This document shows positions 40,823 to 64,000 of a DNA stretch of 64,000 nucleotides, piece by piece. The DNA is taken from contig JARBTQ010000002.1 in the NCBI GenBank assembly GCA_029240075.1, positions 75,218 through 139,217 on the forward strand, given 5' to 3'. The stretch's first letter is position 1; each line of letters opens with the position of its first letter. The translations under genes were made by a program, and so were the position numbers. Source of the stretch: Chlamydiales bacterium (GTDB taxonomy: Bacteria > Chlamydiota > Chlamydiia > Chlamydiales > JARBTQ01). The notes under the pieces were generated by a model, which saw nothing but the letters and a program-made list of their open reading frames with translations, ran no database searches and had not been told where the DNA came from.

Positions 40823-42109
40823 ATGACTGTTGATATGAATCGTATAGCCAGCATTATCTTGGGTGGTGGGCAAGGAACACGCCTATTCCCTTTAACATAT
40901 AGTAATTGCAAGCCGGCTATCTCTTTTGGTGGGAGATATCGTTTAATAGATGTTCCCGTATCTAATTCGATTAATTCTCAAATTCGTAAAATCTTTATTA
41001 TTACTCAATTTCTCTCTTCTTCTCTACATCGACACTTAATGCATACCTACCATTTTGATCAATACTCCTCAGGGTTTATTGAACTGCTTTCTCCAGAACA
41101 GTGTCCCACAGGTGAGCACTGGTTTCAAGGTACGGCAGATGCGGTGCGTCAAAATGTAAAATATTTTATAGAGACCCCTGTCGATTATTTTCTGATTCTA
41201 TCAGGTGATCAACTTTATAATATTGAATTTGAGAAGATGCTTGACTTTGCACAAAAGACAGATGCAGATTTAGTTATTGCATCTCTACCTGTAAATAAGC
41301 AGGATGCTCAACGTATGGGAATCATGCAAATCGATGAAAATGCGCATGTCATAGATTTCTATGAAAAGCCTAAAAGTGACGAAATTTTAAATCGTTTGCA
41401 TGCTGATAGCAAAGCCTTAGAAAAATGGGGATTTAGCATTTCTCCAGACAAACCTTTCTTAGGTTCTATGGGGATCTATGTCTTCAAAAGAGAGGCTTTA
41501 CTACGTTTGCTTCAAGAAGATCAACGTGAGGATTTTGGAAAACATCTTATTCCTACACAAATCAAAAAAGGAAAGGTAGCATCCTTCCTTTACACCGGAT
41601 ACTGGGAAGATATCGGAACAATTGATGCTTTTTATAAAGCCAATTTAGCTTTAACAGAGCCTAATCCTTTATTTGATTGTTACGATCCAAAAAACAAAAT
41701 TTATACAGAAATTCTAAACTTGCCCGGACCCAAGTTTTCAAACACGAAAGTGTCCCAAGCTATTATATGTGAAGGGTCAATTGTAGAAGCTGATGAGGTA
41801 ACGCACAGTATCTTAGGCCCTCGTACTGTAATCAAGAAAGGCACTATAGTAAGAAATTCATTCTTGATGGGGAATGATTTTTATGAACCGCCTGTAATGC
41901 AAACAGAAAGCCTTCCAGAATTTCTTCACATTGGAGAAAACTGTGAGATTGATAAGTGTATTATTGATCGTAATGTGCATATAGGAAATAACGTTAAATT
42001 GAAAAATCCACAAAATCTAGAGCATTACAACGGGGAAAAGATCTACATTAGGGACGGAATTATCATTGTAACGCGTGGTGCACGTATACCAGATGGATTC
42101 AAACTCTAA
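40823..42109 (+). CDS. glgC: Glucose-1-phosphate adenylyltransferase
   Basis: ILGGGQGTRLFPLT nucleotide-binding motif, FQGTADAV, and a C-terminal left-handed beta-helix region. 428 aa. Confidence 0.9.
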   Translation: MTVDMNRIASIILGGGQGTRLFPLTYSNCKPAISFGGRYRLIDVPVSNSINSQIRKIFIITQFLSSSLHRHLMHTYHFDQYSSGFIELLSPEQCPTGEHWFQGTADAVRQNVKYFIETPVDYFLILSGDQLYNIEFEKMLDFAQKTDADLVIASLPVNKQDAQRMGIMQIDENAHVIDFYEKPKSDEILNRLHADSKALEKWGFSISPDKPFLGSMGIYVFKREALLRLLQEDQREDFGKHLIPTQIKKGKVASFLYTGYWEDIGTIDAFYKANLALTEPNPLFDCYDPKNKIYTEILNLPGPKFSNTKVSQAIICEGSIVEADEVTHSILGPRTVIKKGTIVRNSFLMGNDFYEPPVMQTESLPEFLHIGENCEIDKCIIDRNVHIGNNVKLKNPQNLEHYNGEKIYIRDGIIIVTRGARIPDGFKL

Positions 42110-42134
42110 CTTCAAGCTGTTAGATAGGATGGCT

Positions 42135-42175
42135 AAATAGATCTCTTGCGAAGTAATGTACGAAGAGATCTATTT
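42135..42175. terminator. 15-bp inverted repeat hairpin 25 nt after the glgC stop (no U-tract); carries the AGAGATCTAT repeat core
   Basis: aaatagatctcttgcg / cgaagagatctattt, one bulge, 10-nt loop. Confidence 0.45.
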
Positions 42176-42433
42176 AACAGTAAGATGCAAAAGGGGGCTA
42201 ATACAGCAGCACGCTTTACACGTTGTTTTGGAAGTCGCGATTTCAAGCTCGGAACGCCTGTTTTGCGAACTTCTGCATACTCCCTAAGATGTTGCTTAGC
42301 TACTCTTTCAAGACGTGTTTCCTCTAGTTTAGCCCCTTCAGTAAATGGCCTAGCTGCAAATTCCCCAGTATCCACGGTAAAGCTAGCGATTCCTTTAACT
42401 GTTTCGATAGGTTGCGTAACCAATAGGTCTCTC

Positions 42434-42497
42434 TCGAAACTTGTTTCGAAGAGATTTATCGAGCCACCGACAGTAAAGATTTGAAAGAGGCTCAATC
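42434..42497. repeat. 64-nt dispersed repeat copy inside the orphan module ORF
   Basis: tcgaaacttgtttcgaagagatttatcgagccaccgacagtaaagatttgaaagaggctcaatc. On the minus strand it encodes LSLFQIFTVGGSINLFETSFE. Confidence 0.75.
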
Positions 42498-42700
42498 TAG
42501 TCAGATTATTAGTCGCACCAACGATATTATCATTGTACTTAGCTTGTAGACGAGCAATCTCTCTATTATTTGATTGGACCACGGGATTGGCTTCACTTGG
42601 AACATAAACTTTAGCATTTTCTAACGTTCCGTGTACTTTATTATAAGCCCACTCCCTACCTTGATCAATGATATTTGTCTTTGGTTGTGTCTTGCTATCG

Positions 42701-42855
42701 GGAGCATGGACAAGACCGGGATTGCCCTTAGTCACAGCAATAGAATCTTGCTGATTAGCTACGCTTATAAATGCAGGACCACAATAGGCTTTGTTTTCAT
42801 CAATTACTGCTTGACCGTGTTCAAAATCCTCCTTAGAGACCACATCATCAGGATG
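42701..42855. repeat. 155-bp repeat copy 1 (partner 45370-45524, same orientation)
   Basis: Hand alignment gives 7 mismatches in 155 nt, with sharp loss of similarity on the low-coordinate side. Confidence 0.85.
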
Positions 42856-43093
42856 CAAGCCAACAGCTGTAGGCTTAGATTCTATAGGAGCAGGCTTTTC
42901 TGGGACTTATAAATCACGATGTGGAGGTTTTAGAGACTCCTCAGGCAGATTAGCTTTTTTAATAGGTTGAGGTTCTACAGAGCTAGGCTTGCCTGCAGGA
43001 GGTAGCTCTAGGGCAGCTTTATTCTGTCTTTATAGAGAGTTAAATGTTGCCACTAGAACTGAATTCCAGACTCGCCTTATGAAACTACGTTTA

Positions 43094-43669
43094 TTACTGA
43101 CTCGATGAAGGTGATGGGACGAGATGACGAGCTTCTTCATATGGTTCTTGCAGTATGACTTCTAAATTCCGTATTTCTTCGTTAAAACGTTCATAGGTAA
43201 TGATGCCATCACGTAATGTTGCCATAGCTACATAGTTCCCTCGAATGAATAGCTGATCATTATCTAGTTGGCGGAAGGTCCAGCGTAACTGTAGTCGTTC
43301 TAAACCAAAGGTAGGGGTTGTAATAAGTTCTTTAATTTCGTTAGAATCATTCAGAAGCTTGAGGTACCAGTCTGTACTCTCTACAATCATTTTTCGTGCT
43401 TGAGAAACATCATTAGCTTCTTGCCCTTCATAATACATGCGTAGCCAATAGATTTTGTCACCCCAATGCGCTGTTATCAAAAACGGGGTATAGTGATAAA
43501 CCTTCTCCATCTGCTCAACATGTTCAGCTTGGTATTTTCCAATATAATATTTTTGAGGCGGCCAATACCATTTCTTATGGGGCGGCGGCAAATCTGCATA
43601 GCATTGTAAACTGTTTATAAATAGTATCGCTATTAGTGATATAGAATAGATTTTTAGTTGATATATCAT
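43094..43669 (-). CDS. Small exported protein, paralogue B (candidate immunity/partner protein)
   Basis: 191 aa. Signal-like N-terminus MIYQLKIYSISLIAILFINSLQCYA-D. Shares ...AR..(I/Y)......(Y)L.LLN...EI/KI...L..(L/V)E/Q.R..F...EPYEEAR architecture with the preceding gene. Its ATG overlaps the upstream stop (ATGA). Confidence 0.7.
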   Translation of the reverse strand: MIYQLKIYSISLIAILFINSLQCYADLPPPHKKWYWPPQKYYIGKYQAEHVEQMEKVYHYTPFLITAHWGDKIYWLRMYYEGQEANDVSQARKMIVESTDWYLKLLNDSNEIKELITTPTFGLERLQLRWTFRQLDNDQLFIRGNYVAMATLRDGIITYERFNEEIRNLEVILQEPYEEARHLVPSPSSSQ

Positions 43670-44259
43670 GATTTATCCCCCAAAGCTAACTTCAAATGGT
43701 TAAATTCTTTAGTACGTGCCTCTTCATAGGTTTCTTTATGTATATTTTTTAGAGGGTTATGTATACCGTAGCCTTTCTTAGTATCGTAATAAATATATTT
43801 ATTGTTATTAAAGATACAACAGATATGCGTTCCATCACTAACTAGTCGTTGATTGGCATCATAAAACTCTAAACGTATTTCAACATTAGCCAGAGTAAGT
43901 GGGTAATTTGCTAGATAGGGCCTAATCTTTTCATTATTGTTAAATAGTTCTAAAAAGGTATTTAGATAGGTCAAATAGATGCCACGCGCAGTCTCCACAT
44001 CACACAATGAAGACATTAGCAATCTAAATTCCACTTCTTTTATATCATGCATCATAGATCCGCCGCCGCCGCCGTAGCTTACCGGAAAAAAATTGTTGAT
44101 TTTACTCACAAATTCCCGCTCTAATTGAGCGGAAAGGTTAATATACTTGTAAGCTTTTCTTTTTGGCAAAATATCTTCAGGAGTAATATATCTTTCGCGA
44201 TCCATACACGAAAAACAAAGCAAAGGGCAGATTAGGAACATTCTCAATATATTTCTCAC
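43666..44259 (-). CDS. Small exported protein, paralogue A (candidate immunity/partner protein, possible lipoprotein)
   Basis: 197 aa. MRNILRMFLICPLLCFSC signal with an atypical lipobox-like Cys. Internal GGGGGS. Ends ...KETYEEAR.... Its GTG start overlaps the stop of the 1277-aa gene (GTGA). Confidence 0.7.
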   Translation of the reverse strand: MRNILRMFLICPLLCFSCMDRERYITPEDILPKRKAYKYINLSAQLEREFVSKINNFFPVSYGGGGGSMMHDIKEVEFRLLMSSLCDVETARGIYLTYLNTFLELFNNNEKIRPYLANYPLTLANVEIRLEFYDANQRLVSDGTHICCIFNNNKYIYYDTKKGYGIHNPLKNIHKETYEEARTKEFNHLKLALGDKS

Positions 44260-47200
44260 GAATTATCCTCTCTTATAAATGCTTCACATTTAACCTGTAA
44301 AGGTTCGAAGTAAACCTTAGATAACATACTGTGAGCAAACCCTTCTTGTGAAATCGAACATTCCATGCCATCCTCAATGTTTTGAGCATGCATTTCCATT
44401 AATTCATCCGTTTTATTATCTATCCACTGTTTTTTGTGGTTATTGAACAAAGGAGTTGAGTAAATAATATCATCTTGATGCTCAAAATAGTATAAGTTTT
44501 CCGCATACTGTCTTAAAGTTTTTTGAACTTGCTCAGATGTTTTTAAACCATATGTTTTTTCTAAGATGTCAATTCGGTTATTATTTAATAGTTTTGGAAT
44601 AGGATCTAGATTACATATGATATTGGACACCTTTCCTAAATTCATTTTAGGAATAATGTCAGCGCCTCCCATACTAATTACAGAGATTCTATCTTGTTCT
44701 TTATCCGGCAGAGTTGCGACAGCATTTTTAAAAATTAGCGATCCAAGACTATGCGTTATAAAAATTGCCTTCTCGTTTTCGTTCAAAATGTCTTTCATCC
44801 ATGCTCTACAAAATTGAATGTGAGAGTTATTATTATCTTGCAACATTGTGAGAAGCTGAGGCACTTGCAAATTAAAATAACAACCTTGCACTTCATGTTT
44901 CCCACCAAAAAGAGAGTGAACAAATTGATGCTTTTGCTTTGCTTCGTCAGGACTATTAAACATTCCTGATATGACACAAATAGAGGTCGTTTCCTTATTT
45001 CTGATAAATTTTTCCCCTTCAATCTTATACAGGCCTTCATCTTTAAACTTATAGCCTAGTCTATTTTCAAAGTAAGCAGTAGTAGGAAATTTGGTATTCA
45101 TCTCTTTATTATCAATTTTTTCGATATCCTCAAAGCCATAGCCTGTAGTTATGTGGCTTTGTCTTTCTAAAGCTTCCAAGAAAGGTTTTACTAATTTTGA
45201 GGTATAGGAGTCTAGTTGAGTCATGTTTGTTAAGCCGATTATCTCAGCCTTACTGTTAGCATCTTGATCTGCTATCTCATGAACGTGTTTCTTCTCTCCC
45301 AATAACTCCTTTTTAGTTTCCAAAGGAGGATTTCCCTCTGCGTCATTTTGAGGTCTACTAACGGGGTCAGGAGCATGGACAAGACCTGGGTTGCCCTTAG
45401 TCACAGCAATAGAATCTTGCTGATTAGCTACGCTTTTAAATGCAGGACCACAGTAGGCTTTGTTTTCATCAATTACTGCTTGACCATGTTCAAAATCCTC
45501 CTTAGAGACCACATCATCGGGATGAGCTACAGCTTTGTTTGAACCGGCAAGACCGGAGAGCGTGCCTGAGTCATGCCCATAACTCGGATTTGCGCTTGAC
45601 CCTTGATGAGCTGCAGGATAAGGTAACCCAGCCTCCATTCTAGCGACATAGGCTGGATCATCCGTCTTGTTTTGGTACACTCGAGGTGTAGGTTTGGCTA
45701 CAGGCTGAGTTTCAGATACAACAGTAGGATCATAGCTTGTGGTTTTAGTCGTATTGCTCGTACTCGCTGGTTGTAGATTAATTGGTTCTAAATTATCAAG
45801 TGGAGGTATAGGATTACTTGAATATTTACCTGGACCAGAATTGCCTGTGGAATTTGTTTTTGCATTAGAATTAGTAGCTAGTTTTTGTAATGCCTTAATA
45901 TTTTCTATCTTTGCATCTATTCGAGCCATTGATTCTTCAAAAGAAATTTCATCAGGATCTACCAATAGCCCTGCAGAAGATTTGATTTTATATATGCTAG
46001 CATCGATCTCAGTCATCTTACTAGAAAAAGAATCTTTTTTTAGCAGCTGTTGTGCTTGTGCTTGTATTCTATCAGCTTGAAGGCACATATATTCAAATTC
46101 AAGCTTATTTGACTCAAAATCAGCTACATCAAAATCTGCTTTCATTCGTGCCATAGTCGCTTCTTGATTAAGCTCTTCCGCTAAATTTATAAGCCCTTGC
46201 TCATACTCTTGCTTTTTTAAATCCATATAGAATTCAAATTTTTCTCGATCATTATCTTCTAAATTTTGAATCCTATCATCTAAACGATTAAGTGCATGTT
46301 CCGCTTGATTTAATTCTTGTCTAGCATTGGATTCCAACTCTGTCAGTATAAGACCTGTGGTCGCAATTTTAAGCTCTGATAATTGTGTGTGAAGATGCTC
46401 TGTTTGCGCATCGCTGGCAATTTGATCTGCTTGCTTATCTAATCGCTCTAATTCTTCTGTTGTTTTTTGCGCATTTTCTTGTTGTTGCTGATTTTGGATC
46501 AACACTTCAGTATGCTGACTGTCTGCATAATCGACTGAGTTGATATGATTTAAAAGAGTGACTCTACGCTGCTCCCAACCCACTTTTAATGCTCTATCAA
46601 CTTCACTTAGAGTCTGAGTGGACTTATAGTATTGTCCTGTTACTTCAGCTATCTTTTTACTATTATTTTCGATCTGTTTAGCAAGTGTTTCCACTTTTTT
46701 TAGCTCACTTTCACTATGAGAGGACCGATACTTATCAGCAGAAGTGTTCAGCTCGTGTGCTAATTGTTGGGTTTCTGTGCGAAGCTTTTGCATTTCTGAT
46801 GATTGTGAAAGACCTTGGTTTGATAAAGCGTGATAGCGCGATAGATTTTGCTCATTTTGTTGGTGTTGCTGTCTCAATTCAGAACTAAGACTGGATTGCT
46901 GTCTTTGTAGTTCTTGATAGCTCTGCTGTATTTTTTCGGCAGTATGATTCAATTGGTGCTGGATCTTCTGAGCTTGCTCTGGAGCCTCTTTTGCCTCACA
47001 AACAACGCTTTGCATCTTATGCGTTAAGTCTTGAAATTTACGTTCATGCCCTGTGCGCTCTTGTTCGTTATTTTCTAATTTTTTGCACTGCTGTATTGAT
47101 TGTTCTTTGTTTTCCTGTATGCGTTTTTCAATATTTCCTATACGGTTCTTTTCATTATTTATTTGAGTTTGGTGTATGTTACGATCTTGTTGCGCACTAG

Positions 47201-48089
47201 CAGTATAGGCAGAATCCCATTGCTGCGGGTTAAAATTTTGAGTCTGTGTTATTTTTAGTTTAGCTAAATAACGTATCGCATCTAGTTTCAGATCCTGTTG
47301 AGCATTTTTTTTTGCACATTCTAGAATTTGTGAATGCATTTGCTGTATGTAAGCTGGTGAGCCAAATACTGGTTTTTGTCCAAATCCTCCTGCTGTCTGT
47401 GTAAAAAGAGGTTGAGGTTGTGCAAAGATTGGATTGCGAGGTGGCGGCGGGCTGAGCGAACGAGGATTCCGTGATTGGGCATTATGCAATGAGTTGGAAA
47501 CATGGCCTGCTTGAGTTTGAATGCTACTTGCTGTTCCTTTGCCATGTCGTACCCGTAGTTCTGTGCTTTCCTTAGTCGCTGCTTGATAAGTCTGTTTTTG
47601 ACTGATGCTATGATATTTTGCTTCCGATTGACTTTTTACATGATCAGCTTTTGTCTTAAGTTTTGCAGACACAGGATTAGCTGGACCGCTAGGACTATTA
47701 CCAGAAGGTCCTTTAGGGTCTGGTGAATTTGCAAAAAACTCTACTTTCCTTCTAGCAAAAGCGTTAGCTTGAGCATAGCCTTGGTTATGGGAAGAATTGG
47801 CAAAAGCTCCAGGAACACCTGTTAGATCTGAGGCAATAATTCCTATTTCTTGCAGCTTTTTAGTGGCAAAGTCTTGATAAGCTTTGATCTTTTCAAGATT
47901 TTCCTGCTGCTTAATCTCTTCTTGTGAAGGCCCACTGTAACTTCTTTGGGGGGCCTGATTACGACTGCGGCGAGCATAAGGCCAGGCAGGCCCGCCTCTA
48001 TTACCCGAAGATCCTCCATATAACCAAGCGTATCCGATTTCAAAACTATAACCTTTTCGACTATAACTTCCTTTACTTCGCCAACCCAT
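44256..48089 (-). CDS. Large multidomain protein: disordered N-terminus, Q-rich coiled coil, P/S/T linker, C-terminal lipase-like alpha/beta-hydrolase domain (putative secreted effector/toxin)
   Basis: 1277 aa with no signal peptide. Residues about 300-720 are heptad-rich (QQ.., LE..). The C-terminal roughly 280 aa carry a nucleophile elbow AIFITHSLGSL (GxSxG-like), an Asp motif ICNLDPIPKL (resembles the D.VP of class-3 lipases) and EGFAHSM (candidate His). Confidence 0.75.
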   Translation of the reverse strand: MGWRSKGSYSRKGYSFEIGYAWLYGGSSGNRGGPAWPYARRSRNQAPQRSYSGPSQEEIKQQENLEKIKAYQDFATKKLQEIGIIASDLTGVPGAFANSSHNQGYAQANAFARRKVEFFANSPDPKGPSGNSPSGPANPVSAKLKTKADHVKSQSEAKYHSISQKQTYQAATKESTELRVRHGKGTASSIQTQAGHVSNSLHNAQSRNPRSLSPPPPRNPIFAQPQPLFTQTAGGFGQKPVFGSPAYIQQMHSQILECAKKNAQQDLKLDAIRYLAKLKITQTQNFNPQQWDSAYTASAQQDRNIHQTQINNEKNRIGNIEKRIQENKEQSIQQCKKLENNEQERTGHERKFQDLTHKMQSVVCEAKEAPEQAQKIQHQLNHTAEKIQQSYQELQRQQSSLSSELRQQHQQNEQNLSRYHALSNQGLSQSSEMQKLRTETQQLAHELNTSADKYRSSHSESELKKVETLAKQIENNSKKIAEVTGQYYKSTQTLSEVDRALKVGWEQRRVTLLNHINSVDYADSQHTEVLIQNQQQQENAQKTTEELERLDKQADQIASDAQTEHLHTQLSELKIATTGLILTELESNARQELNQAEHALNRLDDRIQNLEDNDREKFEFYMDLKKQEYEQGLINLAEELNQEATMARMKADFDVADFESNKLEFEYMCLQADRIQAQAQQLLKKDSFSSKMTEIDASIYKIKSSAGLLVDPDEISFEESMARIDAKIENIKALQKLATNSNAKTNSTGNSGPGKYSSNPIPPLDNLEPINLQPASTSNTTKTTSYDPTVVSETQPVAKPTPRVYQNKTDDPAYVARMEAGLPYPAAHQGSSANPSYGHDSGTLSGLAGSNKAVAHPDDVVSKEDFEHGQAVIDENKAYCGPAFKSVANQQDSIAVTKGNPGLVHAPDPVSRPQNDAEGNPPLETKKELLGEKKHVHEIADQDANSKAEIIGLTNMTQLDSYTSKLVKPFLEALERQSHITTGYGFEDIEKIDNKEMNTKFPTTAYFENRLGYKFKDEGLYKIEGEKFIRNKETTSICVISGMFNSPDEAKQKHQFVHSLFGGKHEVQGCYFNLQVPQLLTMLQDNNNSHIQFCRAWMKDILNENEKAIFITHSLGSLIFKNAVATLPDKEQDRISVISMGGADIIPKMNLGKVSNIICNLDPIPKLLNNNRIDILEKTYGLKTSEQVQKTLRQYAENLYYFEHQDDIIYSTPLFNNHKKQWIDNKTDELMEMHAQNIEDGMECSISQEGFAHSMLSKVYFEPLQVKCEAFIREDNS
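45370..45524. repeat. 155-bp repeat copy 2, inside the 1277-aa gene (partner 42701-42855)
   Basis: Same alignment as copy 1. Encodes HPDDVV...GLVHAPD just upstream of the lipase-like C-terminal region. Confidence 0.85.
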
Positions 48090-48312: not shown

Positions 48313-49302
48313 TTAGCGCTCATCTAAGCGAGGAATAATATTGAAATTAGGGATCATCTTTGTTCCCAAGCGTGGTTGCGAAGGTATAGCAGGTTCTATG
48401 GTTTGAGTTGTTCGAGCTCCTCTCATATAGCTTGCTTGTAATTCTAAAAACTTTTGCGTTAATAATTGTCTCTCTGCACGTTCAGCAATGAGCTCATTTT
48501 TTAGCAACTCTAATATTTCTGAAGTCTGATTTGATCCTGAAGGTTGCCATTGAGTTACAGTATTTGTAGAAGATCTTTGCAAAGCTTCTTTATCTTTTTC
48601 TAACTCGCTAATCTTATTTAAAGCTGTATCTAATCGGGATGATAAATTTGTTTTATCTGTATAGAAGTCTCCCCTTTGCCTTTCTACGTCACGCAAAGTT
48701 TCCGTTAAAGCTGAGACTTTTTGTTTACTTTCATTTAGTAAAGATTCATTTTCTTGGAACTTTTTTTCAAGTTTTGAAACAATTTCTTTTTGTTCTTTAA
48801 GAGCTTCTTCTAGAGACTTTAGATCCAGGTCCTTTTTAATGTTTTGCTCATCTAAAGATTTCTTAAGAGCTGACCACTCCTCTTTATCCCTATGATGACT
48901 TTCCCTCTCAGTATTGAGCTGTGCTTGAAGCCTGCTATTGTCTTCTGCCCGATAGTACCGTTCGTCATTTAAAGAGCGTTCTAATCGTTCCTCAGCAATC
49001 TTAGAATGGCGTAAAGATTCGACAGATTCATCCAAATAATAAAGATGTGTGGCTAGATGTTTACAATCTTCTCCATCTAAGACATAGTCAAGTTGTGCCC
49101 ATATAGTATTTTTGCTTGCTCGCGATTCGATAGCTGCCTTTAGCTTTATGCTTGCATTTTCTCCTCTACTTTTATGGAGATCATATTCAGGAAAAGGGAT
49201 TGGTTGATGACAAACAGGGTTTGGCTCTGGTTCTTTTTCCTCATTAGGGGGGGTAATCATTTCCTCATATAATTCTCTACGTTTTGATCTAGATGTAAAC
49301 AT
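48313..49302 (-). CDS. Coiled-coil protein (329 aa), hypothetical
   Basis: Central roughly 180 aa of charged heptad repeats (SLDEQNIKKDLDLKSLEEALKEQKEIVSKLEKKFQENESLL...). No signal peptide. Confidence 0.65.
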   Translation of the reverse strand: MFTSRSKRRELYEEMITPPNEEKEPEPNPVCHQPIPFPEYDLHKSRGENASIKLKAAIESRASKNTIWAQLDYVLDGEDCKHLATHLYYLDESVESLRHSKIAEERLERSLNDERYYRAEDNSRLQAQLNTERESHHRDKEEWSALKKSLDEQNIKKDLDLKSLEEALKEQKEIVSKLEKKFQENESLLNESKQKVSALTETLRDVERQRGDFYTDKTNLSSRLDTALNKISELEKDKEALQRSSTNTVTQWQPSGSNQTSEILELLKNELIAERAERQLLTQKFLELQASYMRGARTTQTIEPAIPSQPRLGTKMIPNFNIIPRLDER

Positions 49303-49367: not shown

Positions 49368-50615
49368 TTAGGTTATTAAAAAATCATCAGAAAGAGCTGC
49401 TAATGCAGATAGCTGTTCAATGATTAGCGATAAGGGATCTATAAGATCTAGCTCAATTTTTTGAATTAATTCATTCGAATTCAACGAATCTACTTTCTCA
49501 GTCAAAATTCCTAGATGCTGTAATAAGGCTTTTACCTGAGAAATGAGCTCATCAAAACTTGCATATCGTTTTTGTGTTATTGTAACGCAATGCTCTATCT
49601 CTTTTTGATAATCGGAAATTTTTTTATTCAATGCATCCTTAGCTTGGAGTTGCTGTTGTACATTTTGCTGAAAAAAGTGCAGTTTATTTTGTTGCTGCTT
49701 AGCTAAGATTTGCTGATGTTGCCTTGTTAAGGCTTGTTCCTGCATCAAGCTTTCTAGATTTTCAATAGTTTGCAAAGTCGTAAGATATAGATTCCTAAAA
49801 ACTTCTATTGCTTGTTTTATTGCATGTAATCGCATTTCAGCAGTATCAAAACAGTTTAGAACCTCCGGATTAAACAAAGAACGAGTAGAATCGTACCTTG
49901 CGCTCATATTTGTCACTTTGATTTGGATGTCGGATAATAGTGGTACGAGGGCACCATCTATTGTTTCAGATGAGCGATAATTTCTTGTATGCACCGTATT
50001 CCCTGTTTGTAGCGATTGTGGCAAAGATTCAGATAGCTTAATAAGAGCATCCTTCAATTGGCCACCATGCTCACTCAACAGTAGAGGTAAGGAGGTCATT
50101 TTTTCTGTAATTGTTTTAAAAGACTCATGACTATTATTCAAACGCTCCCGTAACTCATTACAAGATTGTAAATGATGGAGACTACTGAGTTCCTGTTTTA
50201 TGTCTTTAAAGAGATTTAAAGTTGTCTTGAGATTATTCAAGATAAAAAGAGAATAAGAGCGTAGAGAAGGAAGGGTTTCATTCGACTCTTTCAGCACAAA
50301 AGTAAGTTGTTCCGTGTTGGCTGTTAAATTATGAAATTCCATTTTAAAACTTTGCATCTTTTGCTCTTGTGCACTCCATAGACGAGCCTCAAAATTAAAC
50401 CTTGTATCTTGCTCCTGATAAAGACGCAGTTGATCTTGTAAATGTTGTAAAGCTTGTTTTACTGCTAAGCCAATCTGGTATGCTTTACAATAAGTACGTT
50501 GTTCTAATACCAAATCTTCTTTTGAACTAGCATGATCTACTATAGCTGCTTCTAAAGTTAATTGTGGACTACTTAAAGGCTTATTTTGGAAAATAGTTTG
50601 TATAGAAGGGTTCAT
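49368..50615 (-). CDS. All-helical hypothetical protein (415 aa)
   Basis: Long ORF with Q/L-rich helical sequence. Same strand as, and 65 nt upstream of, the 329-aa coiled-coil gene. Confidence 0.65.
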   Translation of the reverse strand: MNPSIQTIFQNKPLSSPQLTLEAAIVDHASSKEDLVLEQRTYCKAYQIGLAVKQALQHLQDQLRLYQEQDTRFNFEARLWSAQEQKMQSFKMEFHNLTANTEQLTFVLKESNETLPSLRSYSLFILNNLKTTLNLFKDIKQELSSLHHLQSCNELRERLNNSHESFKTITEKMTSLPLLLSEHGGQLKDALIKLSESLPQSLQTGNTVHTRNYRSSETIDGALVPLLSDIQIKVTNMSARYDSTRSLFNPEVLNCFDTAEMRLHAIKQAIEVFRNLYLTTLQTIENLESLMQEQALTRQHQQILAKQQQNKLHFFQQNVQQQLQAKDALNKKISDYQKEIEHCVTITQKRYASFDELISQVKALLQHLGILTEKVDSLNSNELIQKIELDLIDPLSLIIEQLSALAALSDDFLIT

Positions 50616-52519: not shown

Positions 52520-52697
52520 TTTCTTTAATTAAGCAATTATTCTTTTAAGTATACCTAGGTCTTTATACAGAGTATGTTTTCAGTAGTTTATATTTTTTAT
52601 CTGTAGTTGATTTTTTTTATTTTGTTGATTTAAATTTTGTTAAATGGCACTTAGTTAATTAGATTGATAATATTAATGCTTTTAATTGGGGGAGCTA

Positions 52698-55286
52698 ATG
52701 GAATTTAATATAGAGCAGAAAGCCGAAATATTAATACAGAAGATTAGACATTACTTAATGACAGAAAGAGGACATAAAATAGAAGAAGCTTCAGATGAAG
52801 ATCTATATCAAGCTGTATCTTATGCTCTGCGTGAAGAGATTATGATTCATTGGGCAGCTACAATGGATACTGTAGCTAAAAATAAAGCTCGTACAATCTA
52901 TTATCTTTCCCTTGAATATCTTACTGGAAGATTTTTAAGTAATAATATTTCTAATTTGCAGGCTATAGACCTCATGCAATTAGTTGTAAAGAAAATGGGG
53001 CGCGATCTTAGAAAAATTTTATGGGTAGAACCAGATCCTGGTCTAGGTAATGGGGGATTAGGACGCTTGGCTGCTTGCTTTATGGATTCTTTAGCAACTC
53101 TTCAATATCCTGCTATGGGTTATGGGCTGAGATACCAATATGGAATATTTGAGCAACAACTTTGCCAAGGAGCTCAAATGGAACGCCCAGACTGCTGGCT
53201 TCTGCGAGCTCAACCCTGGGAATTTCGTCGAGATAACCGTGCTGTTCCAGTAAAGTTTTGTGGACGAACAGCCCTTAAAACTAACAAAGCTGGTGAGCAA
53301 GTTTACGAATTAGAAGATGCTGAAGAAGTGAGAGCATTACCTTTCGATATTCCAATCATTGGTTACAGTAAGCATCACCCTTTTTCAGTGAACACGTTAC
53401 GTTTATGGTCCACTAAAGAATCTCCTCGTAATTTCCAACTGCAGCGTTATAATGCAGGAGAAATATCAAGTGCTTCTGAAAATACAATGCTAACAGATGT
53501 CTTGTATCCTAATGACAACCATGAAACAGGCAAGCGTATTCGTCTTAAGCAAGAGTTTTTATTAGTTTCAGCTTCTATAGAAGATATTTTGAGACGTCAT
53601 TTAGCAAACTATGGCAATTTAAAAGATGTCGCTGATAAAGTTCGCATCCAAATTAATGATACTCACCCAGCACTAGCAGTTGCAGAAATGATGCAGCAAT
53701 TGACCAAGTGCCATAACTTTACATGGAATCAAGCTTGGGAAGTTACACAACAATGTCTTAGCTATACCAACCATACTGTATTAGTAGAAGCTTTAGAACA
53801 ATGGAATCAAGGTCTCGTCTACTATCTACTACCACGTCAGTACCATATTATTGAGCGTCTTAATATGGAGTTTTGCGGTAAAATACGCAGCCATTTTCCT
53901 AATGATGAAGAGCGTGTAAGAAGGATGTCTATTCTGGAAAATGGGCAAGTTAGAATGGCTAACTTATCAGTATATGGTTCGCACCATGTTAATGGAGTGG
54001 CAGCTCTTCATACGGATATTATCAAAAAATCTGTATTTAAAGATTTTTATGAAATGTACCCAGAGCGGTTTATTAATGTAACTAACGGGGTTACTCAAAG
54101 GCGTTGGTTATTAAGTGCTAATCCTCGTCTAGCAGATTTCATTACTAAGCGAATAGGGGATAAATGGATTACTGATTTTAGCCAAATTCGAAATTTAGCT
54201 AAATTTGCTGATGATGCTACAGCTCAAAAAGAGTTTTTGGAAATCAAGAAACAAAATAAACTCGACCTTATCGATATGCTCAACGAAGCAAGAGTTTGTC
54301 GCGACAAAAAATGCAATCCAACGGCAGATTATATGTTCCCTCAAATAGACCCTAATTCGCTATTTGACGTACAAGTAAAGCGTATTCATGAGTATAAGCG
54401 ACAATTAATGAATGCGATCCATGTTCTTATGGTTTATCAAGACCTATTAGAAAATCCAGATAGCCGCAAAATTAAGCGCACTGTATTTATTGGTGGTAAA
54501 GCAGCTCCTGGTTATCAGATGGCAAAAAATATTTTACGGCTAATTTATTGTATTGGACGTAAGATTAATAACGATCCTAAAATTAAAGATAAGCTCAAGC
54601 TGATCTTTATTGAAAACTATAATGTTTCAAAAGCTGAGGTCATCATTCCAGCAGCAGAGCTTTCAGAACAGATCTCTACAGCAGGACTAGAGGCTTCAGG
54701 TACAGGTAATATGAAGTTTTCGATGAATGGAGCCTTGACAATTGGTACTGATGATGGTGCTAACGTAGAGATGAGAGAAGAAGTCACGAACCAATGGTGG
54801 CCATTCCTATTTGGAGCTTCTGCAGAGCGTATTGAAACTCTAAAGCGCTCTCATACGTATAATCCTTGGGATGTATACAATAAGCATCTACAAGTTAAAA
54901 AAGCGATTGATATGCTGAAGGATAATTCTTTAACTCAAAATGATGAAGAAAGAGAAGCTTTAAATCAAATTTACAATGCTCTTATGAATGGTATCAATGG
55001 ACAACGAGCTGACCGCTACTTTGTTCTTGAAGATCTTCCTGAATACTATGAAATGCATAAAAAAGTAGAAGCTTTGTACCAAGACCAAGCTGTTTGGGCT
55101 AAATATGCTCTTCACAATATAGCGGGTATGGCTAAGTTTTCTACGGATAACTCTATCACTACTTATGCTAAAAAAATCTGGAATATTCAACCATGCCCTA
55201 TCGATAAAGAGCTGTTGAAAGAGATTAATTTTGACTATACAGCAGCGTATCATGCTATTTGTAATATTCCAAAAAGAGGCTCATAA
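52698..55286 (+). CDS. glgP: Glycogen phosphorylase
   Basis: About 860 aa. GLGNGGLGRLAACF and the PLP-lysine region EASGTGNMKFSMNGALTIGTDDGANVEM. ATG at 52698 is preferred to TTG at 52686. Confidence 0.95.
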   Translation: MEFNIEQKAEILIQKIRHYLMTERGHKIEEASDEDLYQAVSYALREEIMIHWAATMDTVAKNKARTIYYLSLEYLTGRFLSNNISNLQAIDLMQLVVKKMGRDLRKILWVEPDPGLGNGGLGRLAACFMDSLATLQYPAMGYGLRYQYGIFEQQLCQGAQMERPDCWLLRAQPWEFRRDNRAVPVKFCGRTALKTNKAGEQVYELEDAEEVRALPFDIPIIGYSKHHPFSVNTLRLWSTKESPRNFQLQRYNAGEISSASENTMLTDVLYPNDNHETGKRIRLKQEFLLVSASIEDILRRHLANYGNLKDVADKVRIQINDTHPALAVAEMMQQLTKCHNFTWNQAWEVTQQCLSYTNHTVLVEALEQWNQGLVYYLLPRQYHIIERLNMEFCGKIRSHFPNDEERVRRMSILENGQVRMANLSVYGSHHVNGVAALHTDIIKKSVFKDFYEMYPERFINVTNGVTQRRWLLSANPRLADFITKRIGDKWITDFSQIRNLAKFADDATAQKEFLEIKKQNKLDLIDMLNEARVCRDKKCNPTADYMFPQIDPNSLFDVQVKRIHEYKRQLMNAIHVLMVYQDLLENPDSRKIKRTVFIGGKAAPGYQMAKNILRLIYCIGRKINNDPKIKDKLKLIFIENYNVSKAEVIIPAAELSEQISTAGLEASGTGNMKFSMNGALTIGTDDGANVEMREEVTNQWWPFLFGASAERIETLKRSHTYNPWDVYNKHLQVKKAIDMLKDNSLTQNDEEREALNQIYNALMNGINGQRADRYFVLEDLPEYYEMHKKVEALYQDQAVWAKYALHNIAGMAKFSTDNSITTYAKKIWNIQPCPIDKELLKEINFDYTAAYHAICNIPKRGS

Positions 55287-55379: not shown

Positions 55380-57206
55380 TTAAGTGCCTTTAGAATCACT
55401 CAAAGTATTTAAAACACCTTGGAAATAATTTTTGATTTTGCCTTGTTCTAACGGTTCGACTTCATACAAGTTTAGAGCTTCTAATTGCTCAGAAAATGCC
55501 TTTAAACATTGAAAATCATCCGGTAGAAGTAACGTTTGGCGTGCAAGTTTCATAAACGCCTGCGTTGTATCAAACTTATAAAATTCGAATAGCATCTGAT
55601 TTTTTATGTAGTCAATTGGTCGTTTAGATTGAAAGAAATCTAAAGCTATCTTTTCCAAACGTTTAATTTGTACTTCAATGAATTTCAAGTCGATAAATTG
55701 TTTATCAAAGTCAACCAAACTTGGGTTTAGTTTAATGTACTTTAAAGGACTAGAACGAGATCGATTTATAGGATTTCCATAGGTATACAATTTAAAATGG
55801 CTCAAACTTAAACCTTGAGACAGAGTTTCAATTTGGTTGGTGTGGATATCAAGAAATTCAAGACATAACGGAAAAGAGCTTGGTCGTCTATTTAATTTAC
55901 GCAGCAGGTTGTGACTTAAATCAACGGCTTTTAATGTCTCAATTTTCCAGAATTTTGAAGGAACAGAGTCTATTTTGTTATGGTTTAGTACCAAATACTC
56001 TAAATTTCTAAGTTTGACTAATGCTCTAGGAAAGGCTTCAAATCTATTATAGTCTAAATGCAAAAATTTTATTTGCTTAAGATGGTGAAAATGACGGGGT
56101 AACTTTTTCAAATGATTATGATCTAATCTAAGGCTCGATAGAGTCTGTAATTTAGTAAATGTCTGAGGGAAGTGGGTAATTTGATTATGGCTTAGTTCGA
56201 GGGTACTCAATGATGTCAACTGTTCTATGTTTGATAGAAGCCCTGACATTTGATTGTAGTTAATCTTCAAGATTTGTAGACTGGTAAGTTGCCCCATTTC
56301 TTGTGGTAATTCAGTCAGTTGATTGAATGATAAGTCTAATGCTTTGAGTTTTGATAATCTTCCTATATTAGGAGATAAGGTCTTTAATTGATTGTGTCTT
56401 AAAGAAAGAGTTTCCAAACGATCAAACTGTCCAATTGCAGCAGGTATTGTTTGCAGCTTGTTATATGCCAGATCTATTCTCAGTAGATGCCTTAAAAGGC
56501 AGCTTTCTTCTGGAAAAAATGTAATTTCTTTATTGGATAACTCTAAAGACTTTTTGAGAAAGGAATAACTACTTTTATTGCTATTTTCAGAGAAATTCTT
56601 TTTAATGTTTAAAATTTGCAATCCTTTTTGATACAAGGAAAGATTAGGATAGCTAGCATAGTTAGAATGAAACGAAGAGTAAATTGTAAACAAGTTTTTC
56701 AACTTTTCTGTTACACGCCAGGTTTGTAGTTCCATGTAAATTTGAGAAAGGTCTAGTCTATCCTTGTTAGCATTGGCTGCTAATTTCCGTATAAAGGAAT
56801 CTCCCCCAGCTATAGCCAGAATCTCTCCAATAACCTTTGTAAAGATAGCCTTCACCCTAATGCATTCTTTTGAAAATGACATTTTGAGAATTTTATCTTC
56901 TGGTAGTAAAGGGGATAAATAGAGATCGATAATGTATTTAACTTGATCATATTGTTCACTATGATACTTAAAATTGTAACCCGTTGATTCATTGCGTAAG
57001 CTTGATATAGGATCGAGGACTTGTCTATATAAAACTCTCTCTATTTTTTCACGGATTTTTATAAAACGGTAATCTTCAGTATCCTTGATAGTACGTAATC
57101 TCTTAGAACAGCTCCCTACTGCTATGGGATTAACGTCTTCATAGCTACAAATTATATCTAAGATTTCGTCAGGCAACTGTTCTAAAAGACTTAGTGGAAA
57201 ATTCAT
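55380..57206 (-). CDS. F-box plus leucine-rich-repeat (eukaryote-like) protein, putative host-targeting effector
   Basis: N-terminal F-box LSLLEQLPDEILDIICSY. About ten 23-aa LRRs of the L..L.L..N.L..LP..IG.L..L type. ATG at 57206 with a gaagga SD is preferred. The ORF track's TTG at 57299 directly abuts the asd stop. Confidence 0.8.
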   Translation of the reverse strand: MNFPLSLLEQLPDEILDIICSYEDVNPIAVGSCSKRLRTIKDTEDYRFIKIREKIERVLYRQVLDPISSLRNESTGYNFKYHSEQYDQVKYIIDLYLSPLLPEDKILKMSFSKECIRVKAIFTKVIGEILAIAGGDSFIRKLAANANKDRLDLSQIYMELQTWRVTEKLKNLFTIYSSFHSNYASYPNLSLYQKGLQILNIKKNFSENSNKSSYSFLKKSLELSNKEITFFPEESCLLRHLLRIDLAYNKLQTIPAAIGQFDRLETLSLRHNQLKTLSPNIGRLSKLKALDLSFNQLTELPQEMGQLTSLQILKINYNQMSGLLSNIEQLTSLSTLELSHNQITHFPQTFTKLQTLSSLRLDHNHLKKLPRHFHHLKQIKFLHLDYNRFEAFPRALVKLRNLEYLVLNHNKIDSVPSKFWKIETLKAVDLSHNLLRKLNRRPSSFPLCLEFLDIHTNQIETLSQGLSLSHFKLYTYGNPINRSRSSPLKYIKLNPSLVDFDKQFIDLKFIEVQIKRLEKIALDFFQSKRPIDYIKNQMLFEFYKFDTTQAFMKLARQTLLLPDDFQCLKAFSEQLEALNLYEVEPLEQGKIKNYFQGVLNTLSDSKGT

Positions 57207-57299
57207 TTTAATGAATCCTTCTTTGTGAATGAATGATTTTAATGGATTTAAATATACATTAATAGGTTGGGAAATAAAAAATTTACTAGCAATAGACAA

Positions 57300-61496: not shown

Positions 61497-64000
61497 TTAT
61501 ACAAAGTTTGCATCCTTGATAGCTTTATCATATACACAAAAATATTGTGATATAGGGGACAATTTACCATTTATACCACTAGTCCAGCTGGATTGAGCTG
61601 CATTTTTCATAACATTTCTTAGCCTATTATTTTTGTCACTAGAACTCATGGTTTTCCAGTTTTTGAATGTATCATAAATAGCATATTTTAACCGTTCTGA
61701 GTTTCCTTGCGAGTCATTAGGTTTTCTCTCAAATAGTGTTCCATTTTCAGCGGTAACTGTATCAGCTAATCCACCTAGTTTGCTTGCAATCACTTGGGAA
61801 CCAAAAAGCCATCCTTCGTATTGTACTAATCCACAAGGCTCAAATCTTGAAGGAACGACCATAAAGTCAGATGCCGCACGGATTAATGCCCCTATTTGCC
61901 CTTGAATTTTATATGCCTCTCCATTCTTTTCATCATTGATAACACACGTATCATTCCTCATATTTCCCTGAGCACATTTTTCTTGTAATGAACGCACAGC
62001 CTTACTGCCGTCTTGATCATCAGGGTTATGTGGTCCTACGCTAATAAATTGTCCCCCCTGCTTTAATACTTCTTCTGCAGCAGCGGGTAGAAGGTCTAGG
62101 CCTTTTTGCCCTGTATAACGGCCAATAAAATAGACTAAAGGCTTGTTTGGATCTATCTTGATATGGAATCCATACTGGTTACCATACTTTGTAAACCATT
62201 TTTTTAACTGCTCTTTAATAATGCGCTTTTTACCCATTATATCTGGATCATCAGCGGAGAATGTGAGATCAATTGGTTTTCCTGTTTCTGGGTCTTTCCA
62301 TTCTCTTAATTGTTGGTTTGTTGCGGGATTCCATGCTTTAGGATTACTACCATTAGTAATTCCTGTCAGTTTGTTCTGTTTTGCTATATCGCGGATATCA
62401 TTATCTATATGAAAACCATAGTCGGGAGACATCGATTCTTTAGCATAAGATTTTGATACTGTAGTTATATGATCAGCATTTTGTAAACCAATTCTGAACA
62501 GGTTATCTCCCTTCATTCCAAATCGAGAATCCTTTTCTTCGCCATTACTATATATCCCTTGTGCGCCATAATCATTGTTATGGTAAGTGTATACAACTGG
62601 TAATGTTTTGTTTTTTTGTTTAATTAATTGTGCAGCTCCAGCAGCATGCCAGTCATGTAGATGTACTAAAGGAATGTTTCCCTTACTCTTTATACGGTCA
62701 GACATTTTTAGACTTAAATCTGCTGCATGACTAGAGAAGCAAGCAAACCTTGTTTTTATACTAGCAGTGCCTGAACCATAAACAGAGGGTTTCTGTTCTG
62801 AAAGTCTAAACCGTCCTCTTTTGTCATCTATAAGATAAAGGTTAACTCCATCTAGTTTAGTCTTGAAAACATTGTAGTCTGGTGTTGAAAACTTAGGAAC
62901 AGGTTTCAATTGAAGATTCTTTTTCTGAAGGATGCTGTCTAAACTGCTGTATTTTGGTAAGATAACACGAGCTTTCCCTTTTTGGCGTTCTTGTTGCGAG
63001 ATCGCCTCTGCCATACCTGTTATAGCTTCAGCCAATCCTCCTTCAGAACAAAGCCCTTTGTATTCAACGCCTACTAAGATAGGTCTTACCTTACTAACAT
63101 TGTCTGGAAGTGTTTGACTTAGTCTTTCAGCCTCGCAGTTTATAAAGGTTGTCTTTAACTTGCCTAAAAATGTCTCTTTATTTTCACCTAAAGCTGAATG
63201 AACCTTATCTAATAAATAATCAATTGCTGATTTTTGTCCATTAGGGCCTTTTTGGTGTAAAAGTGCTGGGTTCTCTCTAAGAGCTTTTTCTCCGTCAAAT
63301 TTTTTTCCTGTATTTTCGTAAACATAATAACCCAAATATTTTTGGTCATGCTCATCTAGACTTGAGACTATTTGGTTGATACTTGACTTTAAATCTTCTA
63401 TCCTAGGATGTTTTGCTAAAATTGATAGTTTACCTAATAGAAAACGCACATACACTTTTTCATCATCGGACAGAGGTAAGTGTTCTATGCTACTATACAC
63501 TTGTCTTATACTACCGGCTAAATTATGTAAGTTACTATCAAGGATGATGCCTAAAGAGTGCAATTCCTTAGCTGTCTCATGTGCTAGAGATTGTATCCCG
63601 TTGGATTTTAATGCCTCCTGGTATAATTTGCCGAAGTCAGAAAGAACAGATATTTTAATTAACTTTTCTTTAAGGGGTTTTTGCCATTGAAAAAACTTAA
63701 TCATTTCTGGTAGCATGGCTGAATTGCTGTTGTTATTAGCATGAAATGTAGTATTAAAAATTTCTTTTAAGTCATTATTCAAAAGAACTGTCCTTCCAAA
63801 ACAATAGTCTGTTTCCATTTCTTTAAGGCGACTTCCACTGTTTCTAAATGCACGATAAATAGACTCCTCTATTAGATATCCAGTAGATTTCTTCAAATCC
63901 TTATAAGAGTTCCTAATTTCCTGTGCGGACTTACCAGCTTTTAAATCATCCCAAAAACGTTCCAGTTGCTGTAATTTTGTAGGAGCGTTACCAGAAGGCG
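61497..64000 (-). CDS. Divergent GT5 glycogen-synthase-like protein with a long N-terminal extension; the 5' end lies beyond the window
   Basis: The frame stays open from 63896 to nt 64000 (…PSGNAPTKLQQLERFWDDLKAGKSAQEIRNSYKDLKK…). GT5 core begins near VGVEYKGLCSEGGLAEAI. Also HLHDWHAAGA, GRYTGQKGLD and SRFEPCGLVQYEGWLFGSQVIASKLGGLADTV. Confidence 0.8.
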   Translation of the reverse strand, partial: PSGNAPTKLQQLERFWDDLKAGKSAQEIRNSYKDLKKSTGYLIEESIYRAFRNSGSRLKEMETDYCFGRTVLLNNDLKEIFNTTFHANNNSNSAMLPEMIKFFQWQKPLKEKLIKISVLSDFGKLYQEALKSNGIQSLAHETAKELHSLGIILDSNLHNLAGSIRQVYSSIEHLPLSDDEKVYVRFLLGKLSILAKHPRIEDLKSSINQIVSSLDEHDQKYLGYYVYENTGKKFDGEKALRENPALLHQKGPNGQKSAIDYLLDKVHSALGENKETFLGKLKTTFINCEAERLSQTLPDNVSKVRPILVGVEYKGLCSEGGLAEAITGMAEAISQQERQKGKARVILPKYSSLDSILQKKNLQLKPVPKFSTPDYNVFKTKLDGVNLYLIDDKRGRFRLSEQKPSVYGSGTASIKTRFACFSSHAADLSLKMSDRIKSKGNIPLVHLHDWHAAGAAQLIKQKNKTLPVVYTYHNNDYGAQGIYSNGEEKDSRFGMKGDNLFRIGLQNADHITTVSKSYAKESMSPDYGFHIDNDIRDIAKQNKLTGITNGSNPKAWNPATNQQLREWKDPETGKPIDLTFSADDPDIMGKKRIIKEQLKKWFTKYGNQYGFHIKIDPNKPLVYFIGRYTGQKGLDLLPAAAEEVLKQGGQFISVGPHNPDDQDGSKAVRSLQEKCAQGNMRNDTCVINDEKNGEAYKIQGQIGALIRAASDFMVVPSRFEPCGLVQYEGWLFGSQVIASKLGGLADTVTAENGTLFERKPNDSQGNSERLKYAIYDTFKNWKTMSSSDKNNRLRNVMKNAAQSSWTSGINGKLSPISQYFCVYDKAIKDANFV

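Follow-up and report, generated by a model that had tools for sequence, protein, structure and literature searches.

The Lif foldases of Pseudomonas and Burkholderia are membrane-anchored periplasmic proteins whose gene stands next to a lipase gene. Most described Imm families are cytoplasmic, and chlamydiae, which are obligate intracellular bacteria, are usually discussed for host manipulation. In the Tle/Tli pairs of type VI secretion systems (T6SS), the lipase active site is plugged by Tli, a lipoprotein of the periplasm or the outer membrane; in adherent-invasive Escherichia coli (AIEC), Tli3 is an outer-membrane lipoprotein that plugs the catalytic crevice of Tle3 (PMC9860674). The Tli protein of E. 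cloacae combines an immunity role with activation of Tle (bioRxiv 10.1101/2023.03.28.534661). Polymorphic toxins, among them alpha/beta-hydrolase tips (Tox-ABhydrolase-1/2/3) and chlamydial Rhs proteins, were catalogued in 2012, and both polyimmunity and orphan-cassette patterns have been described for polymorphic toxins (Zhang et al., PMC3482391). The Chlamydia-specific DUF687 family is classed as alpha/beta-hydrolase-like and is reported to lack the catalytic residues and to have a C-terminal bundle of transmembrane helices (PMC11878206); DUF687 proteins have been included among putative Inc proteins (PMC3048545). Here we analysed a 64,000-nucleotide stretch of a Chlamydiales bacterium genome (contig JARBTQ010000002.1, positions 75,218 to 139,217; hereafter the window), in which a gene for a 1277-aa protein with a C-terminal hydrolase domain is followed, head to tail on the minus strand, by genes for a 197-aa and a 191-aa protein. 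We consider it likely that the three genes form a polymorphic toxin cassette in which the products of the two small genes confer immunity in the periplasm, and that it works like the T6SS Tle/Tli pairs.

We observed that relatives of the two small proteins are encoded directly behind the same hydrolase domain in other genomes. A scan of species-representative genomes gave 29 loci, nearly all from environmental Chlamydiota, and 27 of them have upstream sequence and could be evaluated. All frames of the loci were translated, and an iterative search that started from the C-terminal 303 residues of the 1277-aa protein recovered the hydrolase domain in about 30 loci. In 26 of these 27 loci, the open reading frame (ORF) with the hydrolase domain ends at, or only a few bases from, the start of a family member. 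The reverse test, a metagenome scan with an alignment of the toxin domain, found a family member directly downstream in nine of nine loci, and the linkage is conserved across ~35 loci. A small same-strand gene immediately downstream of the tip is a feature of polymorphic toxins. The original prediction, made from the letters of the window, would have been refuted by stand-alone homologues with no linkage to hydrolase genes; only a minority of family copies stand alone (K0S74_1334 in the same genome, and copies at loci L004, L005 and L026). We do not count these copies as a refutation, because orphan copies are expected for immunity genes. At the locus of the homologue P0002 (L003, 355-2498 and 4287-4802), a truncated toxin/partner pair lies beside a phage-type integrase gene and a DUF1016/YhcG gene, with a 171-aa protein with a faint RING (zf-rbx1) match nearby; this neighbourhood suggests a mobile island.

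Most of the upstream ORFs encode RHS-repeat proteins of 1,650-1,975 aa (PF05593, E 1e-47 to 1e-63) with an N-terminal DUF6531 domain, and all of the large upstream ORFs are homologous across the Rhs core. In these related loci the hydrolase domain begins right after the DPxGL-type motif at the end of the Rhs core, and we therefore identify the domain as a toxin tip. The complete Rhs carriers have Sec-type signal peptides. The toxin would therefore pass through the periplasm, and it is there that protection would be needed. The same hydrolase domain is also found on non-Rhs carriers at loci L026 and L041, besides the coiled-coil carrier of the window. The toxin domain is modular, and the presence of one C-terminal toxin domain on differing N-terminal regions is again a feature of polymorphic toxins.

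Partner genes and toxin tips also occur in arrays. Toxin-tip fragments alternate with family members at L010/L013, L011, L017, L018 and L004, and at L022 and L023 as many as 4 to 5 family members stand in tandem. The clearest array, L010/L013, occupies the two ends of the Candidatus Neptunochlamydia chromosome record OZ247587.1, where an Rhs gene is followed by at least 5 units in which a toxin-tip fragment of ~135 aa alternates with a family member of ~185 aa; the array seems to continue past the point where the circular record begins. Orphan tips in these relatives keep the last part of the Rhs core. Many family representatives are themselves two-fold or four-fold internal repeats, that is, fused 2x and 4x proteins. 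Arrays, tandem runs and fusions of this sort correspond to the polyimmunity and orphan-cassette patterns known from polymorphic toxins (PMC3482391).

To characterize the family, we compared the small proteins with each other and with their relatives. The 197-aa and 191-aa proteins are 27% identical across 97 aa (pairwise BLASTP, E=2e-5). A hidden Markov model (HMM) of 91 other members, from which the window proteins and their close paralogues were excluded, matched the 197-aa protein with 119 bits and the 191-aa protein with 61.5 bits (E=4e-21), each over nearly the full length, and the two are therefore true paralogues. The paralogy had been proposed in the original prediction together with a shared motif, KETYEEAR in the 197-aa and QEPYEEAR in the 191-aa protein, and this motif proved to be the family hallmark, E-x-Y-E-E-A, which is invariant or nearly so. 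The 197-aa protein is a typical family form, with the motifs GGSMM, NNNEKIRPYLANYP and KETYEEA. The subfamily of the 191-aa protein is divergent: GGSMM and EKIRPYL are missing from it and QEPYEEA is retained. The 191-aa protein has a 66%-identical, stand-alone paralogue elsewhere in the same genome, K0S74_1334 (L001, 10001-10573, contig Ga0456365_0001182), which lies beside a GH3 glycosidase gene and without a hydrolase-toxin neighbour; the same contig also has a FliE-family gene.

The family is large. With clusters defined at 50% identity, an exhaustive profile search returned 3,705 cluster representatives at E<=1e-3, of which 546 reach E<=1e-30; a word-indexed search with the small proteins gave just a handful of relatives, at 33-37% identity. 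Neither small protein has a Pfam match at E<=0.1, and ten diverse family members have none at E<=0.01. NCBIfam gave nothing for either window protein and chance-level matches (E>=0.037) for two family members, and a profile search of the PDB with the small proteins likewise returned matches at chance level. No profile match linked the small proteins or family members to the described immunity families (Pfam Imm1-74, SUKH, SuFu) or to the Lif foldase, and no source names any family member. The absence of a recognisable domain, as it had been reported for the two proteins, thus extends to these searches. Some family members (P0083, P0088 and P0153; P0116, P0123 and P0128) have one of two unrelated C-terminal extensions of ~220 aa, without a Pfam match; one type of extension has a conserved LPGE...CPxP pattern and the other GKIVxxRY(F/Y)xPxxIFSC.

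Most family members carry export signals: a strongly hydrophobic N-terminus is present in 133 of 152 representatives and a PROSITE-type lipobox in 55 of them. In both window proteins, 1-2 basic N-terminal residues are followed by 11-12 hydrophobic ones, with 11-residue Kyte-Doolittle maxima of 2.4 and 2.5, and hydropathy thus bears out the signal-like segments that had been noted in each. The N-terminus of the 197-aa protein, MRNILRMFLICPLLCFSC, aligns with the signal/lipobox region of its homologues, and the 191-aa protein has a type-I-like signal peptide (MIYQLKIYSISLIAILFINSLQCYA, followed by D). By prediction, both window proteins therefore have the exported character of the immunity proteins in Tle/Tli pairs, as do the representatives with hydrophobic N-termini.

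AlphaFold2 (AF2) gave a confident model of the 197-aa protein (pLDDT 86, pTM 0.75), with an N-terminal helix, a mixed sheet plus one long helix, and a C-terminal helix that starts at ETYEEA. In a Foldseek search, neither the PDB nor viral models yielded a significant neighbour of this model. A type III secretion chaperone, suggested by protein size and the alpha-beta-alpha layout, was considered and rejected in view of the export signals of the family and of PDB Foldseek matches that include no chaperone. The weak top matches (TM-score <=0.33, E >=0.02) include the lipoprotein CamS (4hn3) and the pilotin AspS of the type II secretion system (4ftf), and they bear on an alternative in which the small proteins are helpers of the hydrolase, as a membrane-anchored periplasmic foldase, activator or export pilot (Lif-like or pilotin-like). 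Lif foldases have an N-terminal anchor and a gene beside the lipase gene, and the window genes show the same adjacency, with overlaps. Moreover, E. cloacae Tli is needed to activate Tle, and helper and immunity roles can coexist (bioRxiv 10.1101/2023.03.28.534661). However, a helper would not be expected as arrays of 3-5 divergent copies, as fused 2x-4x repeats, as stand-alone orphans or together with truncated, start-less tips, and the small proteins have no Pfam match to Lipase_chap or any other family. With Foldseek scores as low as those above, we regard a helper role as quite improbable.

Next, we considered how the three genes are joined. The ORFs and the 4-nt overlaps of the original prediction were found again on the minus strand, with GTGA (44256-44259) shared by the 1277-aa and 197-aa genes and ATGA (43666-43669) by the 197-aa and 191-aa genes. 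The overlaps suggest stoichiometric co-expression of the three genes. A Shine-Dalgarno sequence, GAGAGGA, lies 7 nt upstream of the GTG of the 197-aa gene, and an identical sequence precedes the ATG of the 1277-aa gene; GGGGGA is the ribosome-binding site of the 191-aa gene. The public annotation of this metagenome-assembled genome (K0S74_213) begins the 197-aa gene at Met19, directly after Cys18, which yields 179 aa. This start, if right, would cost the protein its signal segment and the gene its overlap with the 1277-aa gene. We prefer the GTG start, because of its GAGAGGA Shine-Dalgarno sequence and because residues 1-18 line up with the signal or lipobox segment of homologues. Use of both starts would yield two forms of the protein, one periplasmic and one cytosolic. 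A promoter and terminator scan of the locus gave counts not above chance, without a minus-strand terminator.

These features also bear on how the work is shared between the two proteins. As a refinement rather than a competitor of periplasmic immunity, only the 197-aa protein would be cognate, and the 191-aa protein would be an orphan immunity protein against a different toxin variant of other strains. The divergent character of its subfamily, which lacks the two motifs, points this way, as does its closest relative, K0S74_1334, which stands alone in the same genome without a hydrolase neighbour; the stand-alone copies listed above show that members persist without an adjacent toxin. On the other hand, the ATGA overlap and the GGGGGA ribosome-binding site tie translation of the 191-aa gene to the cassette, and tandem family runs directly behind the toxin are common in relatives. 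We therefore hold this refinement as possible but tentative.

The 1277-aa carrier itself has a low-complexity Gly/Ser/Pro-rich N-terminus, a Gln/Glu/Lys-rich centre that, from its composition, is probably a coiled coil, and the C-terminal hydrolase toxin domain. It has no Pfam, NCBIfam or PDB sequence match and no transmembrane segment (maximum 19-residue hydropathy 1.28), and it shows no RHS repeats, no YxYDxxG motifs and no Rhs-core homology that would place it in the Rhs/YD-repeat family (PF05593). A word-indexed protein search with its last 313 residues returned nothing, the query itself included; the gene product may be missing from that collection. Within the hydrolase domain we identified an SGM oxyanion-type motif, a nucleophile, Ser1114 (THSLGS), Asp1162 (NLDPIP) and His1253 (FAHSML). 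When 23 homologous domains are aligned, the Ser (within HSxG) and the His are invariant and the Asp is nearly so; with an NG(I/M) motif, these residues come in the order of an alpha/beta-hydrolase. The three window residues sit in the conserved columns, and the triad is intact, which supports the earlier lipase-like label at the level of motifs. Compared with the Rhs-borne homologues, the window domain has ~100 additional residues between Asp and His. Profile matches of the domain are weak (DUF676, Lipase_3 and cutinase; E >=0.15 for cutinase and lipase), and just 2 of the 23 domains have a Lipase_3 match, which is sub-threshold (E=4.7e-4). The assignment as a hydrolase is reasonably safe, and a lipid would be its inferred substrate.

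The architecture of the carrier raises a different explanation, namely that the 1277-aa protein is a host-directed effector, for example type III secreted, whose hydrolase acts on host membranes, and that the small proteins are relics of the imported cassette or unrelated envelope proteins. Its disordered N-terminus, coiled-coil-rich centre and lack of a signal peptide would suit such a role, as would its place among other coiled-coil proteins and near a leucine-rich-repeat protein, and polymorphic-toxin domains of intracellular bacteria are often turned on the host (Zhang et al., PMC3482391). Relics would, however, be expected to decay, and neither small ORF is disrupted: each retains every invariant residue of the family, a good ribosome-binding site and its overlap. 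The conservation of the linkage across the related loci speaks against this explanation as well, and we consider it rather unlikely.

Downstream of the two small genes, the window preserves what looks like a trace of how the cassette arrived. A 158-nt direct repeat (96% identity) has one copy within the carrier gene and the other at the start of a separate ORF (Table 1). That ORF is 87% identical in amino acids to carrier residues 856-916 across 61 residues, and its unrelated part finishes in a short run of hydrophobic residues. The only start of the ORF is TTG, with no ATG and no Shine-Dalgarno sequence, and there is no partner gene downstream of it, where glgC converges at 42109. Neither Pfam nor NCBIfam gave a match and no homologue was found; an undisturbed allele or relative ending in this cassette was not found in metagenome contigs. 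We read the repeat together with the start-less alternative C-terminus as the mark of toxin-tip displacement: judged from the sequence, the pattern looks as it would if an incoming cassette of toxin tip and immunity genes had recombined onto a resident gene and pushed aside the original 3' end. Orphan or displaced tip cassettes with a homology handle are a feature of polymorphic toxins, the handle being the repeat in the window and the Rhs-core remnant in relatives.

Table 1 Positions in the window of the cassette genes, the toxin domain and the features linked to the direct repeat.
Feature	Position	Strand	Basis
1277-aa carrier protein (ATG start)	44256..48089	-	composition, hydropathy, profile searches
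C-terminal alpha/beta-hydrolase (lipase-like) toxin domain, predicted, residues ~1035-1277	44256..44987	-	iterative search, alignment of 23 domains
Predicted periplasmic immunity protein 1, 197 aa (GTG start)	43666..44259	-	family HMM, motifs, AF2 model
Predicted periplasmic immunity protein 2, 191 aa (ATG start), divergent subfamily	43094..43669	-	pairwise BLASTP, family HMM, motifs
Repeat copy 1, residues 856-908 (HPDDVVSKEDFEHGQ...), just before the variable C-terminal region of the 1277-aa gene	45367..45524	-	96% match to 42698-42855
Putative displaced (orphan) alternative C-terminal cassette	42133..42858	-	repeat copy 2 (42698-42855), then ~180 unrelated codons

We favour periplasmic immunity because of the two-way linkage, the Rhs toxin-tip context, the orphan arrays, the displaced cassette, the modular domain and the export signals, and also because of toxin-partner co-divergence, the intact Ser-Asp-His triad and the precedent of Tli3. 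The protective role against a phospholipase-type neighbour, already put forward in the original prediction, is the reading that comparative genomics supports best, through reciprocal linkage, the Rhs tip, the arrays, the displaced cassette and the export signals of the family; that prediction had missed the setting of Rhs and polymorphic toxins, how large the family is, and the displaced cassette that lies downstream. Several points weigh against our interpretation. Distances among toxin domains are strongly correlated with distances among the partners next to them (Mantel r=0.82, p=2e-4, n=24), which is no more than consistent with neutralisation of the cognate toxin by the immunity protein and is confounded by the shared ancestry of linked genes, since linkage alone could yield much of the correlation. 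The genome loci were fetched with the single motif EKIRPYL and therefore sample one subfamily. The window carrier has neither a signal peptide nor an Rhs shell to bring it to a periplasm, and among the scanned ORFs of the window we found no vgrG, hcp, PAAR or other T6SS gene, to which Tle/Tli pairs are linked, and no other delivery or secretion-apparatus gene. A lipobox scan found no canonical lipobox in either small protein, and the Foldseek search of the PDB gave the 197-aa model no structural neighbour among solved immunity proteins. The single-sequence AF2 model of the toxin domain was poor (pLDDT 43.7); nearly all Foldseek matches of this low-confidence model are alpha/beta hydrolases (esterases, cutinases and lipases), which lends the fold weak support. 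Lipase activity is likewise suggested only weakly, by the profile and fold matches. Finally, a periplasmic immunity protein would be unnecessary if the carrier were a host-directed effector.

In the mechanism that we propose for periplasmic immunity, the last ~240 residues of the 1277-aa protein would act as a serine alpha/beta-hydrolase toxin that probably attacks envelope lipids as a phospholipase or esterase. Both small proteins would reach the periplasm by Sec, via a signal peptide or a degenerate lipobox, and there, we infer, they would bind and block toxins of this type, whether the cell's own or those delivered by sibling or rival chlamydiae. The 197-aa protein is the likely cognate inhibitor, because it is encoded adjacent to the toxin and has the typical family form. 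The 191-aa protein may be a second inhibitor or an orphan immunity protein against a variant toxin. Through the 158-nt homology, the toxin tip and the two immunity genes would have recombined, in this direction, onto the 3' terminus of a non-Rhs gene already in place, and the former 3' end of that gene would have been displaced and would survive downstream as a silent fragment.

A bolder combination of these elements is that an antibacterial Rhs-type lipase/immunity cassette was captured by homologous recombination onto a signal-less, coiled-coil, effector-like protein of an obligate intracellular chlamydia, and that the 197-aa gene perhaps gives a periplasmic product (from GTG) and a cytosolic one (from Met19), which would neutralise or activate the cytosolic toxin before export, as E. 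cloacae Tli does. We regard this combination as doubtful; if it were true, interbacterial weaponry and host-directed effectors would exchange tips in this phylum. More generally, a large, unnamed, exported partner family tied to Rhs-borne hydrolase toxins would imply sustained conflict between bacteria, or sustained self-protection, with the envelope as its probable site. A name for the family would allow thousands of hypothetical proteins to be annotated, and the window offers a simple toxin/antidote pair that is testable in E. coli.

The toxin locus is inserted in a housekeeping region. The remaining window has nusA, infB, yidC, rpsA, lnt and glycogen genes, and the latter are dispersed about the cassette at 40823-42109 (+), 52686-55286 (+) and 61497-63896 (-), with glgC-like, glycogen phosphorylase and starch-synthase-like glycosyltransferase types represented. 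No tRNA was found beside the cassette. GC content of the cassette is 0.33-0.35, slightly under the adjacent 0.40-0.45, and it was rejected as a sign of transfer, as the value falls within the range of the window. Directly upstream of the 1277-aa gene, in the same orientation, lie two ORFs (48313-49302 and 49368-50615, both on the minus strand) with weak SMC/Cast-type, coiled-coil-like matches only; similarity of their products to the 1277-aa protein was not detectable. A 639-aa leucine-rich-repeat protein (LRR_8, E=5e-38) is encoded at 55380-57299 (-), and its repeats are of a eukaryote-like type common in amoeba-associated bacteria.

We then compared the locus with the described systems. Our literature search turned up no publication about Rhs-lipase/immunity pairs of chlamydiae. 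Systems of this kind are known, and what appears to be undescribed is the partner family, its predicted periplasmic export, its size and its tie to a DUF687-related hydrolase predicted to be active. Like Lif, the partner would be of a membrane-anchored periplasmic type and its gene stands beside a lipase-like gene. The two share no homology, however, and the multi-copy, orphan and fused arrangements of the family are ill-suited to a dedicated foldase. As in the T6SS Tle/Tli pairs, the gene of a toxin with the serine nucleophile of an alpha/beta-hydrolase adjoins that of a small, predicted periplasmic partner with a signal peptide or lipoprotein signal. In contrast to those pairs, the nucleophile lies in HSxG and not in GxSxG, and the window proteins resemble no Tle or Tli family in sequence or fold. 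The carriers of relatives are Rhs proteins with a Sec signal, and that of the window is a non-Rhs protein without a signal. Pfam gave the 1277-aa protein no match of the kind that would place it in Tle1-5 (e.g. DUF2235 or Lipase_3).

The toxin-domain family resembles Pfam DUF687 (PF05095; CT326, CPn0066/0069/0381/0882) in being chlamydia-specific with an alpha/beta-hydrolase-like N-terminal part. This N-terminal part of DUF687 is matched by 5 of the 23 toxin-domain homologues (best E=6.5e-11), and the 25-bit cut-off of the model is exceeded among relatives only by L022 (41.9 bits; L008 reaches 24.8), at profile positions ~33-210 of 537 only. Unlike DUF687, the window domain keeps Ser-Asp-His and lacks the transmembrane bundle; the window protein has no match to the model and no transmembrane segment and is not a member. 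The toxin-domain family would give the enigmatic Chlamydia DUF687 (CT326) proteins an active, triad-bearing relative.

The partner family differs from described systems in matching no Pfam Imm, SUKH or SuFu family, and from most described Imm families, which are cytoplasmic, in its predicted export. The window carrier, without RHS repeats, departs from the Rhs systems. In conclusion, the locus otherwise resembles the Rhs polymorphic toxins: the hydrolase domain follows the Rhs core in relatives, genes in the immunity position, orphan tip/immunity arrays and fused multi-immunity proteins are all present, and the window has a homology handle together with a displaced C-terminus.

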